A DNA stretch of 64,000 nucleotides. It comes from Candidatus Palauibacter soopunensis. Lineage in GTDB: Bacteria; Gemmatimonadota; Gemmatimonadetes; Palauibacterales; Palauibacteraceae. The notes under the pieces were generated by a model. It was not told the DNA's origin. It worked only from the letters and a program-made list of their open reading frames with translations, and made no database searches. The position numbers were made by a program, and so were the translations under genes. Shown piece after piece: positions 54,608 to 62,987 of this stretch (position 1 is its first letter; every line of letters starts with the position of its first letter). The stretch is taken from positions 52,243-116,242 of the forward strand of contig NZ_CANPVT010000024.1 in NCBI RefSeq assembly GCF_947581735.1, in the 5' to 3' direction.

Positions 54608-55408
54608 TCACCCGTTCGTCAACGAGACCCGGAGTCCCTCCGTGGCGACGCGCGTAGCGCCGGCGTATCCGGCCTCGGCCACGAGACGGGGAACGTCGTG
54701 GCCTGTTCGGAGGTGCGGGTAGACGTGCGTGAGCACGAGAAGACGCGGGCACGCGGCGGCCGCCAACTCGGCGACGCGGGCGGGCGACAGGTGGTTGTCC
54801 GTCGCCTGCGCGTCGGGGAGCGAGCACTCGCAGACGAGGGCGCTCACGCCACGCATGAACGAGCCCAGTTCCGTGGACGGCCCCGTGTCGCCCGTGTACC
54901 CGAAGCTGAACGACTCGCCGTCGAGCCGCCACGCCACGCTCTCGTCGGTGTGCGGCGTCTTGTGGGCTTCGAGCCGCGGACCTCCACTCAGATCGCGGGC
55001 CTCGCCCGGCGAGAGTTCCTCGATGAGGACGGAGAAACCGGGATTCAGGACGAAGTCGCCATAGGCCCCCGCAAGCTTCTCGAAGAACCGGCGCGTGCCC
55101 GCGGGGCCCCACACCGTGAGCGGCCGGCCGCGGGGCCGGGGGAGGCCGTGTTTCAGCGCGAAGAAGAGTCCCGGCAGCGCGCCGACGTGATCCGCGTGAA
55201 AGTGGGTGATCGCAAGGTCGGTGATCTTCCCCCAGGGCAGACCGAGCCGGGCAAGCGCCTGCAGCGCTCCGGGACCGCAGTCGAAGAGGACGCGTGTGCG
55301 CGCCGCGGATTCCGTGCCCGGGGACGAGATCCAGTAGGAGGAGGCCGCCCGGTCCGCTTCGGGGACGACCGTCCCGCACCCGACGACGGTGAGTTCCGCT
55401 TCGCTCAC
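54608..55408 (-). CDS. MBL-fold metallo-hydrolase (RNase Z/ElaC-like small form)
   Basis: The HxHxDH motif ITHFHADHVGALP is present. The GTG start overlaps the smc stop as GTGA. Confidence 0.75.
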   Translation of the reverse strand: MSEAELTVVGCGTVVPEADRAASSYWISSPGTESAARTRVLFDCGPGALQALARLGLPWGKITDLAITHFHADHVGALPGLFFALKHGLPRPRGRPLTVWGPAGTRRFFEKLAGAYGDFVLNPGFSVLIEELSPGEARDLSGGPRLEAHKTPHTDESVAWRLDGESFSFGYTGDTGPSTELGSFMRGVSALVCECSLPDAQATDNHLSPARVAELAAAACPRLLVLTHVYPHLRTGHDVPRLVAEAGYAGATRVATEGLRVSLTNG

Positions 55409-58400
55409 GCCACCTGCGTGGCGGAGTTGAACTCCACGCCGACGATCGAGGAGACGCCCGCCTCCTGCATCGTCACGCCGTAGATCCAGTCGGCGTTCTC
55501 GATGGTCCGCGGATTGTGCGTGATGACGATGAACTGCGTCTCCTCCTTGAATTCCTTCAGCATGCCGACGAACCGCAGGATGTTCGTTTCGTCCAGCGGC
55601 GCGTCGACCTCGTCCAGCAGGCAGAAGGGGCTCGGCTTCGCGAGGTAGATCGCGAACAGCAGGGCGAGCGCGGTCAGGGCCCGTTCACCGCCGGAAAGCA
55701 GGTGGATCCGCTGCGTCTTCTTGCCGCGGGGGCTGGCGGAGATCTCGATCGGGGAATCCAGGGCGTCGTCGGGATTCTCGAACCGCAGGTCGCACTGTCC
55801 GCCCTCGAACAGGGAGTCGAAGGTGCGGTGGAAGTTCGTCCTCACCTGCTCGAACGTCTCCATGAGCGCGGAGGTCGCCTCCCGGTTGATCCGGCGGATC
55901 GAGGTGCGGAGGTCGTCGCGCGCGCGGGTCAGGTCGTCGCGCTGTCCGGTCAGGAATTCGAGACGCTTCTGTTCTTCCTCGTATTCCTGCTGCGCGAGAA
56001 GATTGACGGCGCCGATGCGGGCGATCGAGCGCCGCACGCGCTCCAGCTCGGGTTCCCATTCGGCGGGGTCCGCATCGTCGACGGGGTCGACGCGCTCCCG
56101 GAGTTCCGCGAGCGGCGCGTCCCACTCCGCCTCGACGCGGCCCCGAATCGCGGACTCCAGGGCCTCGAGTTGCGTAATCTCCAGTTCGAGCTGATGCCGG
56201 GCGTCCACGCGCTCGCGCTCGCGCCGCCGCGCCTCGCTCAGTTCCGACTCGAGCCGGTCCAGTTGTCCGCGGCGTTCGGTGATTCGTCGCTCCAGCGCGG
56301 CGAGGTCCGCTTCGTGCCGCGTCCTGGTTTCGAGCGCGGCGCCGATGGACGCCTCCACTTCCTCCGACTGCGCCCGGCTGTCGGCGATCACCGCCTGAAG
56401 CCCGTCCACTTCCCGCACCAGCGTCCGCGACCGCTCCTCCGCGTCGTCCGCGGCCTCGGCGAGGCGGCTCTCCACGCCGCGTCGATTCTCGACCTCGGCT
56501 TCCCGCCGCGCCTGCGCCAGCTCCGCGTTGTGCAGTTCGGCTTTCCCCGCTTCGGCGGCCGCGCGGGCGACACCGGCCTCCTTTCGTGCCTCCTCGTACG
56601 CGGAGGACAACCGCGAGACCTTCCGGTCGAGGTCGCCGCCGCGGGCGTCGTCGTCCGCCGAGAGCGACACCTCATCCTCGCTGAACGCTTCGAGTTGTTC
56701 GATGCGGCCGGCGAGTTCGCGACGCTCCTCGTCCAGCCGGACGAGCCGCGCCTCCGCGGAGGTCCGGTCGGCTTCGGCTTCGCGGCGGGTCGACTCCGCA
56801 TCGGACACCGAGCGCTGCAGCGCGTCCACCTGCGTGAGCGCCTCGGCGGCTCCGGCCCCCAACGCCTCCACGTCCTCCCGCGACCGCGCGCGATCCTCCT
56901 CCAGCGCCTCCACTTCCTCGCGCAGAGCCCGGAGTTCGGCCCGCCGGCTCAGGAGTCCCTCCGAGGTGGCGCCTCCCAGGTAGACCCCGCCCCACCGATC
57001 CTGGCGCCGCCCCTCCGGGTCCACCCAGGGGTGCGGGCGCGGCGTCAAGTCGCCTGCCGGGGGGGCCGCGATGCCCGCGAGCAGCGCCTCCACCCAGACG
57101 GCGCCGGCCCCTTTCGCGTCAACGTGTCGCAGGAGCGGCGCGTCGGCCTCCGCCGGCCCCGGGAGCGGGCCCGGATCGAGCGGGAGCACGAGGATGCCTT
57201 CCTCTCCGTCGCGCCGTTCGAGCCACGCCTCGACCGCGCGGACCGCGGACCAGTCGCGCACGACGACCGCGTGCAGGTACGGGCCGAGATGAGACTCGAC
57301 CGCGGATGCCCACGGAGCGGATACCTCCATGAACTCCGACAGCGCGCCGTGAAGCCCGGGGATCGCGCTCCGGTCCTTCAGCAGCCGGGCGACGGCGTCG
57401 GGGAGCAGGGCGCTCGACCCCACCAGGGAACCGAGACTCGAGGTGCGGGCGCGCGCCGTGGCGAGGCGGCCCTCGAGGTCGGCCGCCTCCTCGCGGGCCC
57501 GACGCAGCGCTCCGTCCGCGGAGGAGGCGGCGTCACGCGCCGCCTCCAGCCGTTCGCGCGCTTCCTCCAGCGTCCGGCCCGCCTGCGCCTCGCGTTCCGA
57601 CGCACTCTCCGCCTCCGTTCGAAGCCCGTCCTCCTGGGCGGCCAGCGCATCGAGGGCGGGCCGTCGCCGCTCGAGTTCCTCGCTGCGGTCGCGGGCCCGC
57701 ACTTCCTTCACGCTGAGTTCGATCCTCCAGCGCTCCACCTCGCGGTGCGCCTCTTCGAGCGCTTCCCTCGCGTCAGCGCGCTCGCGCGCGGCAGCATCGG
57801 CCGTCTCGGCCAGGGTCTCCGCGTGACGCTCGAGTCGAGCCGCCGCGGCGGCGCCCTCGGCGGCGAGCGACTGCCCCTCCTTCAGGGCCAACCGTGCTTC
57901 CGCCACGCGCTCACGGAGGTCCTCGCGCCGGCGTTTGTTTCGGCGCACTTCCTCCTCGAGGGTCCCCAGCCGGTCGCGCGCGCTCGAAGCTCTCGCCTCG
58001 GCAAGGAGGCGGGTCCGTTCCTGCTCCTCCACGGCGCGCCGGGCCTCCTCGAGGCGCCGCGCGAGACCGGCCCGTTCCCGCTCCATGTCGGTGTACTCCA
58101 GGCGAAGCGTCTCCGCCCGGGTCTCCGCCGTACCCAGATCCACGTGATCCGGCCCCGTGTCCGGCTCGAGGCGCTCGAGTTCCGCCCGTGCCTCGGCCAG
58201 CCGACCGGTCGTCTCCTCGAGCTTGGCGTCCGCGACCGCGACCTCGAGTTGCAGGAGCCGGGCTCGCAGCGTCGCGTGCCGCTCCGCCCGTCCGCGCTGC
58301 TGCGCGAGCGAGCGGACCTTCGACCCCACCTCGACCAGCACGTCATCGAGCCGCTGCAGATCGCTGTCCGCCTGTTCGAGCCGGCGGGTCGCGATCCGGC

Positions 58401-58920
58401 GGCGGTCCTTGTAGCGGCCGATGCCGGCCGCTTCCTCGAACAGCGTGCGGCGCTCCTCGGCGCGGTCCGAGAGGATCGCGTCGACCATGCGGCCCTCGAT
58501 CATCGCGTAGGCGTTCGAGCCCAGCCCGGTGTCCCGGCACAGATCCAGGATGTCCTTGAGCCGGCAGGCCGTTCCGTTGAGCGTGTATTCGCTCTCGCCT
58601 CCGCGGTAGACCGTGCGGCCGATGGCGACGTCGGCGTAGGGCACCGGGAGCACGCCGTCCTCGTTCGAGAGTTCGAGCAGGACTTCGGCCCGGTGGATGG
58701 GCTGCCGCGCCTCCGTGCCCCCGAAGATCGCCTCCTCCATGCGGGACCCGCGGATGGCGGTGGGACGCTGTTCGCCCAGAACCCAGCGCAGCGCGTCGGA
58801 GAGGTTCGATTTTCCGCAGCCGTTCGGGCCGACGACGGCGGTGATGCCGTCGTGCAATTCAATCCGCGTCCGGTCGGCGAACGACTTGAATCCGCGCAGC
58901 GTCAGAGCCTTGATCTTCAC
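55405..58920 (-). CDS. smc: Chromosome segregation protein SMC
   Basis: 1171 aa. Walker A VVGPNGCGKSNLSDAL, long coiled coils flanking a hinge, signature LSGGERALTALALLFA and Walker B FCLLDEVDAPLD. Confidence 0.95.
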   Translation of the reverse strand: MKIKALTLRGFKSFADRTRIELHDGITAVVGPNGCGKSNLSDALRWVLGEQRPTAIRGSRMEEAIFGGTEARQPIHRAEVLLELSNEDGVLPVPYADVAIGRTVYRGGESEYTLNGTACRLKDILDLCRDTGLGSNAYAMIEGRMVDAILSDRAEERRTLFEEAAGIGRYKDRRRIATRRLEQADSDLQRLDDVLVEVGSKVRSLAQQRGRAERHATLRARLLQLEVAVADAKLEETTGRLAEARAELERLEPDTGPDHVDLGTAETRAETLRLEYTDMERERAGLARRLEEARRAVEEQERTRLLAEARASSARDRLGTLEEEVRRNKRRREDLRERVAEARLALKEGQSLAAEGAAAAARLERHAETLAETADAAARERADAREALEEAHREVERWRIELSVKEVRARDRSEELERRRPALDALAAQEDGLRTEAESASEREAQAGRTLEEARERLEAARDAASSADGALRRAREEAADLEGRLATARARTSSLGSLVGSSALLPDAVARLLKDRSAIPGLHGALSEFMEVSAPWASAVESHLGPYLHAVVVRDWSAVRAVEAWLERRDGEEGILVLPLDPGPLPGPAEADAPLLRHVDAKGAGAVWVEALLAGIAAPPAGDLTPRPHPWVDPEGRRQDRWGGVYLGGATSEGLLSRRAELRALREEVEALEEDRARSREDVEALGAGAAEALTQVDALQRSVSDAESTRREAEADRTSAEARLVRLDEERRELAGRIEQLEAFSEDEVSLSADDDARGGDLDRKVSRLSSAYEEARKEAGVARAAAEAGKAELHNAELAQARREAEVENRRGVESRLAEAADDAEERSRTLVREVDGLQAVIADSRAQSEEVEASIGAALETRTRHEADLAALERRITERRGQLDRLESELSEARRRERERVDARHQLELEITQLEALESAIRGRVEAEWDAPLAELRERVDPVDDADPAEWEPELERVRRSIARIGAVNLLAQQEYEEEQKRLEFLTGQRDDLTRARDDLRTSIRRINREATSALMETFEQVRTNFHRTFDSLFEGGQCDLRFENPDDALDSPIEISASPRGKKTQRIHLLSGGERALTALALLFAIYLAKPSPFCLLDEVDAPLDETNILRFVGMLKEFKEETQFIVITHNPRTIENADWIYGVTMQEAGVSSIVGVEFNSATQVA

Positions 58921-58926
58921 GCGCGC

Positions 58927-60486
58927 TCAGGGGGTTGAAGGGGCGGCGGCGCCGCGCCTCGTGGTGAGCGTCGCGATTTCGCCGGCGGCGTCCAGGGCAT
59001 CGCTCATCGGGGCGGCCGCCTCCTCGTTCTCGTACGCGCCGCCATATACCCGGAAGACGGGCATGCCGTCGAGCGTCGTCTCCAGGCTGTAGGCGGGGAT
59101 GCCGAGCGATGCGAGTTCGGCAATCCGCGCCTCCATCGCCGGGCGATCCGTGAACACGCCGAGATCGTAGGCGAGGCTCACGGGACGGAGGAGCCATGTA
59201 TTCGCCTCCTCGGCCACGCCGGCCGCCACAAGTTCGTCCATGAGGACGGAAGCCTCCGCCTCGCTCGCGACGGCGCCGGCGAGGATCCGTTGATACCGAA
59301 CCTCCCGAATCGTCGTGGGAGCCATGAAGTACAGCACGCCTCCGTGAAGCGCGCGGATTTCCGCCACGCGCTCCGACGCCTCGGCCGGATCCACGAAGCT
59401 CCCCAGGAGCACGGAGTACGGTCGCTCGGCGGCCGATTCGAACGCGGCGGCGACCGCGGTGTCATCCGGCGGCTGCGGGGTGGAGGCCGGCGCGGCGACG
59501 TCCGCCGGAGCCGCCGGGGTGCCCCCGTCCTCGGCCACCGGACTCCCATCTTCGGCGGCCGGACTCCCATCCTCGGCGACCGGGTCCCCAGCCTCGGCAA
59601 CCGGGCCATCCTCGACGGGCGTCGTCACCGCCGCCGGAGCCTCGTCCGAACCCCCGATCATCGACCCGACACGGGAAATCGCGCGGTCGAACCACCCGTT
59701 CCGGTACGCCCACCCATTCCCGACCACCAACGCCGCGATGACCAGCGCCGCGACGAGCGGCCCGCGCGGGCGGCGGCTCGGGGTCTTTCCGGGCGTCGGC
59801 CGCGCATCCGCCTGAGCTGTGTCCGCCGGAGCCGCGTCGGGCTCGGGCTCCGGGGCCGGCTCGAGCGCGGGTTCCGGTAGGGGCTCGGGTTCCGGTAGGG
59901 GTTCGGCCTCCTCTTCCACGGGCTCCGCGGGGGGGGCCACCCGCAGATCGCTCGACTCGAAGGGCACGTGGCCGTAGCAGCGCAGGCCGTGATCCTCGTC
60001 GGGGACCCTTCCCACGGCGATGTACCCGTCGAGAAGATCGAGCAGACCCGGGGAGGGCCGTCCGCGTTCGGACATGACGATGAAGAGCGTCCCGTCCTGC
60101 TCCTTCACGCGAGCAACGAAGCGCCCGAGCGCGGGGGATTCCAGCAGACCGACGACGCCTTCCGGCACCTGTCCCGCCGGGAGATAAACGTAGGGACAAT
60201 CCGCGCGCCGCACGGCTACCCGGGCCAGCGCGGACTGCCCCGCGAGGAACTCCGCCATGCCGCGGGAGTCGGCCCGTTCGGCCGCGCCGGCCAGCTCATC
60301 GAGGGGCGATGGCTCCGTTTCGGAGTTCAGGACGAGCGTCCGTCCCCGGCGGCGGGCGAAGGAGGTCGCGATCGCGTCAACCGCCGTCGCGCTCCTCTCG
60401 GCCTCCGAGCGCTCGAACACGAGCGCCACGACCCGCGCATCCCCGGGCAGTTCCCACGTGAACGGGGCCGGGGCGCCGCTGCTCAC
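58927..60486 (-). CDS. Bitopic membrane protein: degenerate P-loop-NTPase-like cytoplasmic domain + Pro/acidic linker + TM + two C-terminal SPOR repeats
   Basis: TM segment LVAALVIAALVVGNGW. SPOR-like units are YSVLLGSFVDPAEASERVAEI...YQRILAGAVASEAEA and AYDLGVFTDRPAMEARIAEL...VFRVYGGAYENEEAA. The GTG at 60486 overlaps the upstream stop as GTGA. The N-terminal domain assignment is by eye (see findings). Confidence 0.7.
   Translation of the reverse strand: MSSGAPAPFTWELPGDARVVALVFERSEAERSATAVDAIATSFARRRGRTLVLNSETEPSPLDELAGAAERADSRGMAEFLAGQSALARVAVRRADCPYVYLPAGQVPEGVVGLLESPALGRFVARVKEQDGTLFIVMSERGRPSPGLLDLLDGYIAVGRVPDEDHGLRCYGHVPFESSDLRVAPPAEPVEEEAEPLPEPEPLPEPALEPAPEPEPDAAPADTAQADARPTPGKTPSRRPRGPLVAALVIAALVVGNGWAYRNGWFDRAISRVGSMIGGSDEAPAAVTTPVEDGPVAEAGDPVAEDGSPAAEDGSPVAEDGGTPAAPADVAAPASTPQPPDDTAVAAAFESAAERPYSVLLGSFVDPAEASERVAEIRALHGGVLYFMAPTTIREVRYQRILAGAVASEAEASVLMDELVAAGVAEEANTWLLRPVSLAYDLGVFTDRPAMEARIAELASLGIPAYSLETTLDGMPVFRVYGGAYENEEAAAPMSDALDAAGEIATLTTRRGAAAPSTP
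59531..59611 (-). repeat. In-frame 21-nt tandem repeats (about 3.8 units) in the periplasmic linker of the SPOR protein
   Basis: Plus-strand units TCGGC(C/G/A)(A/G)CCGG(A/G)(C/T)(T/C)CCCA.. start at 59531, 59552, 59573 and 59594. They encode PVAEDGS/PAAEDGS heptads. Confidence 0.75.
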
Positions 60487-62075
60487 GGGCCTCGCCTCCT
60501 CGCCTGATCTCCCTCCTCGTGAACCCACGCGTCGATCCCCCTCTCCCGCCTCAACTCGAGCGCCGCCTCCTCCGCATCGGGGCGCGTCTCATACGGGCCC
60601 ACCAGGAGCCGATACCAGATGTCGCTCGCTTCGTCCACCCGGCGCAACACGTGCGTCGCATAGCCCGAGCCGTCGAGGAGTTGGCGGGTCGGTCCGAGCT
60701 CGGCCAATTGCCGCGAGGAGAGGGCGACCGCGTAGAAGCCGCCGGGAAGTTCGGGCAGCGGCGTCGCCGCCGGCTCATCCGGGACTGGTGTGACCTCCTC
60801 CCCCGCCGCCGGATCACCGGGGGGGTCCGGAGTCCCGTTCGACAGCCTTCCCACCCTCCCCACCGTCAACAGTCCGATGCGGCCGGGCGCGACGCTGTCG
60901 GCGAGCGCGTCCAGCGCCTCTTCGGCATCTTCCAGCGTGTCCTCGGGCACGACGGCGGCGGACGCGACGGGCAGGCGGCGCCCCCATCGGAACGGGAGCC
61001 ACCAGGCGTCGGCGGGGCCCTCGACGGCGGCGACGTCGCCGTCCGGGCGAAGGAGGCCGAGGCCGCTCTCCGCGGACAACAGGACCGCTCCACCCGGCAG
61101 CGCGAGCGGCAGGTCCGCCCGCCACTCTCCGGGCACCGCGTCCAGACCGGCTTCCCCCGCCCTCGCGGACCACGCGTTCGAGCCGTCCCAGGCCACGAGG
61201 CGGTCGCCAGTCATGCCGGGCCGCAGCGTCTCGAGAGGCGCCTCCGGTCGCGACGAGCCGACTTCGCGCCAGTCGTAGCGATCGATGACGACGAAACGCG
61301 GCCGGTCGACCGACGCCGCGAACACGCGGTGCTGCGAGGGAGAGATGGCCAGGGCCGACGGCGCGCCGCCGATCTCCGCCCCTTCGGCCGGCTCGAGTTC
61401 GGGAATCGACCACTCCGTGAGTCCCCGGCCATCCTCGGACGCCGTCACGATCGTCCGACCCCAGCCGGCGAGCGTGACGGGGCCTCTCGCGCCGACGGCC
61501 CGCGTCGTCGCGGGCCGCGATTCCCCGGCTTCCCATACCGCGAGTTCAGGTCCGTCCGCGCCTTCGACGAGGGCGACGACCCGGTCGCCGGCGGCGGGGG
61601 CCGCCCAGAGCACGACGCCGTCGGCCGCGACCTCCGCAGCGTCGGTGGCGGTGATGGCGAGAATCCGCTCGCCCGACACGAACGCGCCCCCCTGGGGCGA
61701 GGCGATCCAGCGCGCGTCGGCGGGCGCGTCGGGAAGCGGGGTCTCGGCCTCCACCGGCGACGTCGTGTAGAGGCGAAGCTGCCGCCCCCGCCGCAGCACG
61801 ACCGCCGAACCGAGGGAATGGGCCGCCGTGACGCCTCCCAGCGACAGGCGTCCGGTCCAGCGCACGGTGGACGGACTCTCGATCGAGCGGAACTGCGCGA
61901 CTCCGCCGTCGCGCGGAATGACGAGAAGCCCGTACCGGTCGAGCGACGAGCCGGAGACGAGGGTCGGGCCTTCGAGGGGGGCGGGCTGATCTTCCGGGGG
62001 GCTGCCGCAGGCGCCCGAAGCGCCCCCGATGCCGAGCACGAGAAGGAGCGCCACCGGCAACTGCGCATGATTCAT
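60483..62075 (-). CDS. Lipoprotein with large beta-rich repeat region and a C-terminal SPOR domain
   Basis: The ATG at 62075 gives MNHAQLPVALLLVLGIGGASGACGS (lipobox-like ASGAC). The C-terminal GGFYAVALSSRQLAELGPTRQLLDGSGYATHVLRRVDEASDIWYRLLVGPYETRPDAEEAALELR is SPOR-like. The track ORF start (62492) overlaps rsfS and is rejected. Confidence 0.65.
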   Translation of the reverse strand: MNHAQLPVALLLVLGIGGASGACGSPPEDQPAPLEGPTLVSGSSLDRYGLLVIPRDGGVAQFRSIESPSTVRWTGRLSLGGVTAAHSLGSAVVLRRGRQLRLYTTSPVEAETPLPDAPADARWIASPQGGAFVSGERILAITATDAAEVAADGVVLWAAPAAGDRVVALVEGADGPELAVWEAGESRPATTRAVGARGPVTLAGWGRTIVTASEDGRGLTEWSIPELEPAEGAEIGGAPSALAISPSQHRVFAASVDRPRFVVIDRYDWREVGSSRPEAPLETLRPGMTGDRLVAWDGSNAWSARAGEAGLDAVPGEWRADLPLALPGGAVLLSAESGLGLLRPDGDVAAVEGPADAWWLPFRWGRRLPVASAAVVPEDTLEDAEEALDALADSVAPGRIGLLTVGRVGRLSNGTPDPPGDPAAGEEVTPVPDEPAATPLPELPGGFYAVALSSRQLAELGPTRQLLDGSGYATHVLRRVDEASDIWYRLLVGPYETRPDAEEAALELRRERGIDAWVHEEGDQARRRGP

Positions 62076-62128: not shown

Positions 62129-62524
62129 TCACTCCAGTTCGAAGAGGGGGGCGTCGCCCCACAGCCGCTCGAGCTGATAGAACTCCCTGACTTCGCCCAG
62201 GAAGACGTGCACGATGAGGCCCACGTAGTCCATCAACACCCAGCGACCCGCGTTGAGCCCTTCCACGCCGACGGGACGGAACCCGTCCGCGCGCGTTCGA
62301 TCGAGGATGTTCTCGCTGATCGCGCGGGCGTGCGTGTCGGAGTCGCCCGTCGCGATGACGAAGAAGTCGGTGACGTCCGACAGCCCCCGCAGGTCGAGGA
62401 TCGTCGGGAAGCGCGCGTTTCGCTCGAGCGCGGCCTCCGCCGCGCTGCGGAGTTCCGGGGAAGGCGTCCCCCGTTCCGAGAGCCGGCGCCACACTTCCTC
62501 CAGCGGGAGCGGACCGTCCGTCAT
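62129..62524 (-). CDS. rsfS: Ribosome silencing factor RsfS (iojap family)
   Basis: DFFVIATGDSDTHARAISENI...WVLMDYVGLIVHVFLGEVREFYQLERLWGDAP. Confidence 0.9.
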   Translation of the reverse strand: MTDGPLPLEEVWRRLSERGTPSPELRSAAEAALERNARFPTILDLRGLSDVTDFFVIATGDSDTHARAISENILDRTRADGFRPVGVEGLNAGRWVLMDYVGLIVHVFLGEVREFYQLERLWGDAPLFELE

Positions 62525-62537
62525 CGGTGGCGGACCG

Positions 62538-62987
62538 CTATTCCTCGGCGACCACGGACACCTTGATCACGGGCTCGACGTCCATGTGGACTCTCACCGG
62601 GACTTCGTGGTCGCCGAGGTCCTTGATCGGGTCGTCCAGCCGGATCGCGCGGCGGTCCACGGAGACGCCCTCCTTCTCCAGTTCGTCCGCGACGTCCGCG
62701 GCCGTGACCGAGCCGAACAGGCGTCCGCCCTCGCTCGCCCGGCGCACGAAGCTCAGCTCCCTGCCCTCGAGTTCGCCCGCCAGTTGCTGGGCCGCTTCGC
62801 GCTCCCGCTCGGCGGACTGTTCGATCTGGCGCCGCTCCTCCTCGAACCGCTTCCGGTTCCCCTCCGTCGCCACGAGCGCGATCCCCTGCGGAACCAGGTA
62901 GTTCCGCGCATACCCCGCCCGCACGTTCACCATCTCGCCGGCGAGGCCGAGGTCCGCGACGTCCTTTCTCAGAATCACTTCCACCAT
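62538..62987 (-). CDS. rplI: 50S ribosomal protein L9
   Basis: MVEVILRKDVADLGLAGEMVNVRAGYARNYLVPQGIA. GGAGGG lies upstream of the ATG. Confidence 0.95.
   Translation of the reverse strand: MVEVILRKDVADLGLAGEMVNVRAGYARNYLVPQGIALVATEGNRKRFEEERRQIEQSAEREREAAQQLAGELEGRELSFVRRASEGGRLFGSVTAADVADELEKEGVSVDRRAIRLDDPIKDLGDHEVPVRVHMDVEPVIKVSVVAEE

Follow-up and report, generated by a model that had tools for sequence, protein, structure and literature searches.

We analysed a 64,000-nucleotide stretch of DNA from Candidatus Palauibacter soopunensis, a member of the Gemmatimonadota (hereafter the window, whose positions serve as coordinates throughout), in which the smc gene is preceded by two genes for SPOR-domain envelope proteins, here named gene A and gene B. 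All genes of this region lie on the minus strand, and the G+C content is about 72%. According to the list of open reading frames (ORFs) and the sequence itself, gene A (530 aa) occupies positions 60483-62075 and gene B (519 aa, also delimited with Pfam) positions 58927-60486; they are followed by smc (55405-58920), which encodes 1171 aa from a GTG start, and by a gene for a hydrolase of the metallo-β-lactamase (MBL) fold (54608-55408). Gene A begins 53 nt after rsfS, its TGA stop overlaps the GTG start of gene B in the tetranucleotide GTGA, 6 nt separate the stop of gene B from the GTG start of smc, and the smc stop again overlaps the GTG start of the MBL gene as GTGA. An earlier interpretation made from the nucleotide letters alone (the sequence-only reading) had described this order and these junctions, and all of them proved correct once the coordinates were checked. 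The start of gene B is preceded by an AGGAGG Shine-Dalgarno (SD) sequence 8 nt upstream, and GGAG-like SD sequences are present before gene A, gene B, the MBL gene and the downstream gene for DAHP (3-deoxy-D-arabino-heptulosonate 7-phosphate) synthase; smc has none. An alternative start of gene B at 60528, which would give 533 aa, was rejected: residue 1 of homologue P0002 pairs with residue 1 of the product of the 60486 start, homologue P0001 begins at the equivalent residue, the 60486 start has a good SD sequence, and an NTGA overlap with the stop of gene A is found in 19 of the 23 loci compared below.

Gene A encodes a lipoprotein with a seven-bladed beta-propeller, a disordered linker and one SPOR domain. 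Its N terminus, MNHAQLPVALLLVLGIGGASGAC, is compatible with a lipoprotein signal, and the signal peptide with its lipobox (ASGAC, 62007-62075) is marked by hydrophobic residues 4 to 26 and by Cys23, which at least 90% of 48 homologues share. An AlphaFold2 (AF2) model built on 48 database homologue sequences reached a predicted local distance difference test (pLDDT) score of 82.9. In this model residues 45-365 (60981-61943) are all-beta with pLDDT above 94, residues 368-436 form a disordered linker, and residues 446-521 adopt the beta-alpha-beta-beta-alpha-beta fold of SPOR domains. Foldseek matched the N-terminal domain to seven-bladed propellers of the WD40, PROPPIN and YVTN types (E about 1e-11). 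The SPOR domain, placed at residues 444-521 (60513-60746) from Pfam and the model, matched PF05036 over residues 444-518 with an E value of 1.4e-8 and 35.4 bits, against a gathering cut-off of 21. The gene A family comprises 74 database proteins of about 460-566 aa, and all homologues that carry a source name are annotated as "SPOR domain-containing protein" from Gemmatimonadota, Gemmatimonadales or Palauibacter.

Gene B encodes a bitopic inner-membrane protein that combines, from the N to the C terminus, a pseudokinase domain, a disordered acidic and proline-rich linker, a single transmembrane (TM) helix, a disordered periplasmic linker and two SPOR domains. The N-terminal domain, delimited by profile, AF2 and Foldseek results at residues 8-178 (59953-60465), has the fold of a bacterial tyrosine kinase (BY-kinase) and is followed by the acidic/Pro-rich linker at residues 179-240 (59767-59952). 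A Kyte-Doolittle scan detected one TM helix at residues 244-261 (59704-59757), directly preceded by the motif RRPRGP. The periplasmic linker contains a 21-nt tandem repeat found with Tandem Repeats Finder (59524-59604, 3.9 copies), which encodes 7-aa units of the type PVAEAGD / PVAEDGS. Pfam detected SPOR in two stretches (E 2.4e-14, 53.9 bits against a cut-off of 21); the better one defines the first domain at residues 354-424 (59215-59427), and the second lies at about residues 436-512 (58951-59181), with boundaries taken from sequence landmarks. Because SPOR domains act in the periplasm, the N-terminal domain would have to be cytoplasmic. The sequence-only reading had proposed a 530-aa SPOR lipoprotein and a bitopic SPOR protein of about 519 aa with an acidic/Pro linker, one TM helix, 7-aa repeats and two SPOR domains; all of these elements are present, including the conserved lipobox cysteine of A, PF05036 matches above the gathering score in both proteins and the single TM helix of B.

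SPOR domains of FtsN, DamX, DedD and RlpA bind denuded septal glycan. Gene B shares with FtsN, DamX and DedD a bitopic topology with the N terminus inside, a disordered periplasmic linker and a C-terminal SPOR region, while differing from them in having two SPOR domains and a folded cytoplasmic domain of 170 residues, the pseudokinase. Gene A resembles RlpA in being a SPOR lipoprotein, with a beta-propeller in place of the double-psi beta-barrel domain of RlpA. Beyond the SPOR domains, no similarity in sequence between these Escherichia coli proteins and A or B was found. FtsN itself is characterised by a short FtsA-binding peptide in the cytoplasm and an essential helix in the periplasm (EFtsN), and no FtsN model matched gene B in Pfam and NCBIfam scans.

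The N-terminal domain of gene B was hard to place from its own sequence. Pfam returned nothing for it even at an E value of 10, no Pfam, NCBIfam or PADLOC model covers it, and the only models to match, weakly but in register, were those of BY-kinases (NCBIfam TIGR01007, E 1e-3). A single-sequence search of the Protein Data Bank (PDB) gave Wzc as the sole match (E 1.4), and word-index homologue searches recovered one protein with the domain alone and four with a profile. An exhaustive phmmer search of 1.84 billion representatives at an E value of at most 1e-3 retrieved 57 proteins, 38 of them with SPOR and three of them genuine BY-kinases with AAA_31, ParA, CbiA and Wzz domains; the pseudokinase family corresponds to 53 clusters at 50% identity, beside four genuine kinase-type sequences among the 57 matches. 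A family profile made from 47 N-terminal domains (alignment A2) and searched against PDB sequences matched the BY-kinases Wzc (E 2.9e-11), BceF (7.6e-11), VpsO (7.8e-9), Etk (7.9e-7) and CapA1B1 (2.9e-6), and, far behind them, MinD (0.007), FleN (0.027) and Soj (0.029). The AF2 model based on A2 is of high quality (pLDDT 91.6, predicted TM-score 0.89), and its 50 best Foldseek matches in the PDB are all BY-kinase domains, with a probability of 1.00 and query TM-scores of 0.66-0.76. The domain therefore belongs to the BY-kinase (Wzc/CapB) branch of the P-loop NTPases and not to ParA/MinD. The P-loop layout that had been recognised by eye in the sequence-only reading was borne out by profile, model and structure comparison, which place a degenerate Walker A within a BY-kinase fold, whereas its generic assignment to ParA/MinD did not stand, given E values of 0.007-0.03 for MinD, FleN and Soj.

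Alignment with true kinases from the same phmmer search (for example P0056) shows that the catalytic motifs are lost. At Walker A (consensus GxxxxGK[ST]), PSEGKST of the true kinase corresponds to SEAERSAT in gene B, so that GKS becomes ERS; at Walker A' (hhhhDxDxR), ILDTDLKRS corresponds to LVLNSETEP (DTDLKR to NSETEP); and at Walker B (hhhhD), IIIDSPPS corresponds to LFIVMSER (IIDSPP to IVMSER). No glycine is left in Walker A, and its lysine is replaced by Arg in the window and close relatives and by Trp in distant members. The loss of the Walker A glycines and of the Walker B aspartate had been correctly noted from the sequence; the statement that both Walker A lysines are Arg holds for the window only, since in the family the first Arg is not conserved and the second gives way to Trp in distant members. 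The C-terminal tyrosine cluster is likewise missing, with not a single Tyr in residues 179-240, and the deviant Walker A of ParA/MinD (KGGxGK[ST]) is absent from the domain. The fold motifs GL..L.G, YLPAG and DG..LG, by comparison, are kept and nearly invariant in the family. With Walker A, A' and B and the tyrosine tail all gone, the domain qualifies as a BY pseudokinase, a class defined as a BY-kinase fold without these four elements (PMC12004946), and, judging from these residues, ATP binding, hydrolysis or autophosphorylation cannot be expected of it. In alignment A2 we also observed a basic RRR-x-[HR]-T motif (residues 45-50) and an LD dipeptide that are near-invariant in the family and not conserved in true BY-kinases; both are candidates for a family-specific interaction surface.

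Two BY pseudokinases, EcpK of Myxococcus xanthus and HfsB of Caulobacter, have been described as phosphorylation-independent scaffolds (PMC12004946). By their published description they share the BY-kinase fold with gene B and have likewise lost Walker A, A' and B as well as the tyrosine tail at the C terminus, and for B, too, a phosphorylation-independent scaffold role at the cytoplasmic face of the inner membrane is proposed. They differ in architecture and setting: EcpK and HfsB are stand-alone cytoplasmic proteins or domains fused C-terminally to a class 2 polysaccharide copolymerase (PCP-2) and work in Wzx/Wzy polysaccharide clusters, whereas the domain of B lies at the N terminus, ahead of a TM helix and of SPOR domains in the periplasm, and is encoded in a housekeeping operon with smc. 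No Wzz/GNVR domain was found in B or its neighbours, and no Wzx/Wzy or glycosyltransferase genes in the neighbourhood. The best profile and structure matches of B, namely Wzc, Etk, CapB, VpsO and BceF, are likewise membrane-associated P-loop domains, but in Wzc the kinase domain is C-terminal, so that the topology of B, with its kinase-like domain N-terminal to the TM helix, is inverted. Compared with active BY-kinases, B lacks the catalytic motifs, the Tyr cluster and the EX2RX2R helix, and its periplasmic part is SPOR instead of PCP/Wzz. ParA and MinD belong to the same SIMIBI P-loop superfamily as B and yield the weak profile matches given above; B does not have their conserved deviant Walker A, no ATP-dependent dimer sandwich is expected, and BY-kinases match the B family eight or more orders of magnitude better.

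The order A-B-smc was found in about 36 Gemmatimonadota loci (L001-L023, L031-L039, L026, L029, L042 and L047, L031 appearing to be the same contig as L018), down to an SMC identity of 52% and an identity of 31% in the N-terminal domain of B; the taxonomic range rests on the locus titles and the names of gene A homologues. A genome scan with SMC yielded 24 loci. In all 22 loci with an SMC identity of at least 62%, which come from Palauibacter species and related Gemmatimonadota metagenome-assembled genomes (MAGs), the arrangement is rplI-rsfS-A-B-smc, with the MBL and DAHP synthase genes downstream wherever the contig reaches. Together with L001 these make 23 loci, in 22 of which gene B is intact; an NTGA overlap joins A and B in 19 of the 23, and B and smc lie 6-7 nt apart in 19 of the 22 with an intact B. 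All nine metagenome loci recovered with a 10-sequence subset of the N-domain alignment (L031-L039) also carry A-B-smc. Among more distant loci the order is kept in L026 (N-terminal domain of B 36% identical), where B overlaps smc by 4 nt, in L029 (31%), in L042, and in L047, in which A is 31% and SMC 52% identical, B has 627 aa and GTGA overlaps flank smc on both sides. The length of B in L047 is due to a very long acidic low-complexity cytoplasmic linker; in the same locus rplI and rsfS are separated by an inserted FakA/DegV-like (Dak2/DegV) gene (L047:6589-8409). The P-loop similarity, the SPOR domains and the SPOR-SPOR-smc adjacency in relatives, on which the sequence-only reading had made its proposal depend, were thus all found.

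The single split gene B is in the closed genome of Candidatus Palauibacter irciniicola (L001:10001-15925), where it is divided into ORFs of 252 and 228 aa, and where smc and the MBL gene are predicted as one fused ORF of 1447 aa. In L009, a MAG of the same species, B is intact and the smc match runs unbroken over residues 1-1169. The split and the fusion in L001 are probably assembly indel errors rather than pseudogenes.

Across seven divergent orthologues, gene B is conserved where it is folded: identity is 53% in the N-terminal domain and 45-54% in the SPOR domains (54% in the second), compared with 8-25% in the linkers and TM helix (8-20% for the linkers alone, 20% in the acidic/Pro linker). 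This contrast indicates that purifying selection acts on the folded domains of gene B. The translation signals of smc also follow a pattern, read at window positions 58915-58945 and at the B/smc junctions of L026, L029, L031-L039, L042 and L047. Where the gap between B and smc is -4 to 14 nt, smc starts with GTG or TTG without an SD sequence, and at gaps of 80-112 nt smc is preceded by an SD sequence of the GAGG type; absence at short and presence at long distance is the pattern expected for translational coupling.

One locus appears to retain only part of the arrangement. In L024, a Gemmatimonadota MAG with an SMC 44% identical to that of the window, rplI and rsfS are followed by a 241-aa ORF, smc and the DAHP synthase gene; the locus has neither a propeller-SPOR gene nor an MBL gene, and it lacks SPOR domains. 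The 241-aa ORF overlaps smc by ATGA, ends in a C-terminal TM helix, carries, like distant family members, Trp in place of the Walker A Lys, and matches BY-kinase models (E 3e-6 to 2e-5) and the B-family profile (E 9e-12, 43 bits). A pairwise BLASTP comparison of gene B with this ORF was not significant, and as genuine BY-kinases score about as high against the profile, its orthology rests mainly on position. With this reservation, L024 offers the best hint that what is conserved beside smc may be the pseudokinase and TM part of B.

Family members also occur away from smc. Short pseudokinase-TM paralogues of 250-339 aa without SPOR immediately follow genes for TonB-dependent receptors in L027:546-3383 and L040:4800-8020, and L041:2-2388 holds the same short form after a gene of no assigned class. 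P0047, the short form of L040/L041, is encoded in the assembly that also contains the A-B-smc locus L022 and is therefore a paralogue. Further short forms stand in unrelated contexts in L028, L045 and L046, and in L044 (1226-2104 and 3550-5604) two family members lie about 1.4 kb apart with a beta-helix/NosD-like gene between them.

The wider neighbourhood is a co-directional housekeeping block that comprises the genes for an H+-translocating pyrophosphatase (H+-PPase), rpsR, a DUF2232 protein, rplI (62538-62987) and the ribosomal silencing factor rsfS (62129-62524; Pfam RsfS, E 1.3e-27), then A, B and smc, and continues with the MBL gene, DAHP synthase, yraN, dnaX, ybaB and recR. The smc product is a canonical chromosomal SMC: it matches the NCBIfam equivalog TIGR02168 over residues 3-1163 with 900.9 bits against a cut-off of 567, and Pfam finds SMC_N and the hinge. 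Neither scpA nor scpB is among the genes within about 10 kb of smc in L001 and L047, nor in the window between 53 and 64 kb, as the sequence-only reading had stated in saying that they are not adjacent. The MBL protein resembles RNase Z or cyclic-nucleotide phosphodiesterases, far under every curated cut-off, and its gene accompanies smc in all loci with an SMC identity of at least 52%. A promoter scan returned no promoters, and terminators were at shuffle level.

We interpret A and B, with moderate confidence, as a lineage-specific SPOR envelope pair of Palauibacter-like Gemmatimonadota that would be co-transcribed and at least partly translationally coupled with smc and the MBL gene and would serve a scaffold role at the septum. 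By analogy with FtsN, DamX, DedD and RlpA, both proteins would be recruited to the division site through binding of their SPOR domains to denuded septal glycan; the dead kinase domain of B may act there as a cytoplasmic protein-protein scaffold in the manner of EcpK and HfsB, and the operon shared with smc would co-regulate late division functions with chromosome compaction. Several observations weigh against this interpretation. Synteny extends over the entire block, from H+-PPase to recR, and not only over A-B-smc, which makes the conservation of A-B-smc weak evidence for a specific link, since the adjacency may reflect inertia. One SPOR-bearing family member (L030) is not beside smc and, together with the short paralogues described above, shows that the pseudokinase domain is not intrinsically tied to SMC. 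The domain of gene B starts at beta-1 and leaves no room for the N-terminal EX2RX2R ring-forming helix, so that a Wzc-like octamerisation appears doubtful. Finally, the partners of known BY pseudokinases are PCP-2 proteins from polysaccharide clusters, and no PCP-2 gene was found in the window neighbourhood or the syntenic loci, the rest of the genome not having been searched.

These points lead to a serious alternative, to which we nevertheless assign a clearly smaller probability, namely that the adjacency to smc is historical synteny with no functional link and that B is a membrane scaffold in the envelope, for instance for the assembly of peptidoglycan or polysaccharide or, jointly with A, for tethering the outer membrane. 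Conservation of the neighbouring ribosomal and housekeeping genes indeed equals that of A-B-smc, A is an envelope propeller lipoprotein, the paralogues sit beside genes for outer-membrane TonB-dependent receptors, and known BY pseudokinases scaffold envelope polysaccharide machinery (PMC12004946). Against such a history stand the 4-nt overlaps and the SD-less start, which imply in many lineages that translation of smc depends on that of B, and none of the PCP, Wzx/Wzy or glycosyltransferase genes of a polysaccharide pathway was found in the neighbourhood.

A second alternative, in essence that of the sequence-only reading, is unlikely and a little less probable than the first; it takes the same coupling further and regards B as a physical tether, whose SPOR domains would sit at the closing septum while the pseudokinase binds SMC, ParB or DNA and couples nucleoid organisation or clearance to constriction. 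The B-smc junctions remain tight or overlapping and SD-less down to an SMC identity of 44-52%, the ORF of L024 still overlaps smc in a locus that has lost its propeller-SPOR gene, its SPOR domains and its MBL gene, and the near-invariant RRR-x-[HR]-T motif is basic and specific to the family. There is also a precedent of this kind in CpsD of Streptococcus pneumoniae, an active BY-kinase that binds ParB and affects chromosome segregation (PMC4574921). CpsD-ParB(-RocS) resembles what is proposed for B in that a BY-kinase-fold protein at the division site is linked to the segregation machinery; CpsD differs in being catalytically active, in exerting an effect that needs autophosphorylation, in being encoded in a capsule locus and in reaching the septum via CpsC, where B has SPOR domains (PMC4574921). 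Whole-block synteny accounts for the adjacency equally well, paralogues of the module stand beside TonB-dependent receptor genes and other unrelated genes, and the L024 ORF scores only about as high against the family profile as genuine BY-kinases, its orthology being mainly positional. By analogy with CpsD, a direct contact of B with SMC or ParB is possible, and we put forward a physical coupling of the septum to SMC as a hypothesis. In its fullest form, which we hold to be slightly more doubtful still, B would be a septum-anchored adaptor whose dead kinase domain binds SMC, ScpAB, ParB or DNA and ties condensin and nucleoid to the constricting septum, with smc translation slaved to that of B by termination-reinitiation.

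An active but unusual NTPase or kinase, with Arg taking the place of the Walker A Lys, could be imagined from the window and its close relatives, in which Arg does occupy this position. We rejected it as very improbable on the motif losses seen beside true kinases: the P-loop has kept none of its glycines, distant family members carry Trp or other residues where the window has Arg, and a Tyr cluster is missing. A defence system against phages of the Lamassu, Wadjet or a similar type, in which an SMC-like protein would work with membrane sensors and an MBL nuclease, is virtually discounted. SMC-family ATPases with nucleases do occur in such systems, and PADLOC gives generic head-domain matches for SMC, but the protein matches the chromosomal equivalog TIGR02168 from one end to the other, PADLOC has no match for A, B or the MBL protein, and every relative has the locus as a syntenic block of core housekeeping genes.

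The septal scaffold pair thus remains our preferred interpretation of A and B. The sequence-only reading had presented the locus as a novel module. Neither a SPOR/BY-kinase fusion nor a SPOR-smc module turned up in literature searches, and the combination of SPOR domains with a BY pseudokinase, which accompanies smc in a group of marine Gemmatimonadota, represents a new architecture and family, restricted, as it appears, to this phylum. The word novel is overstated, however, in view of the EcpK and HfsB scaffolds (PMC12004946) and of CpsD-ParB (PMC4574921): the building blocks and the idea of a pseudokinase scaffold are already known. What the family would add is a BY-kinase fold turned pseudoenzyme and fused in inverted topology to SPOR domains that bind septal peptidoglycan, extending the pseudokinase-scaffold concept past polysaccharide export. 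Its partly translationally coupled place before smc provides a lead on how division and chromosome organisation may be coordinated in an almost uncultured phylum. Should the link to smc be only syntenic, the family would still be a likely late-division component of the FtsN/DamX type in these bacteria; should B act as an adaptor, it would represent a Gemmatimonadota-specific way to coordinate chromosome clearance with division.

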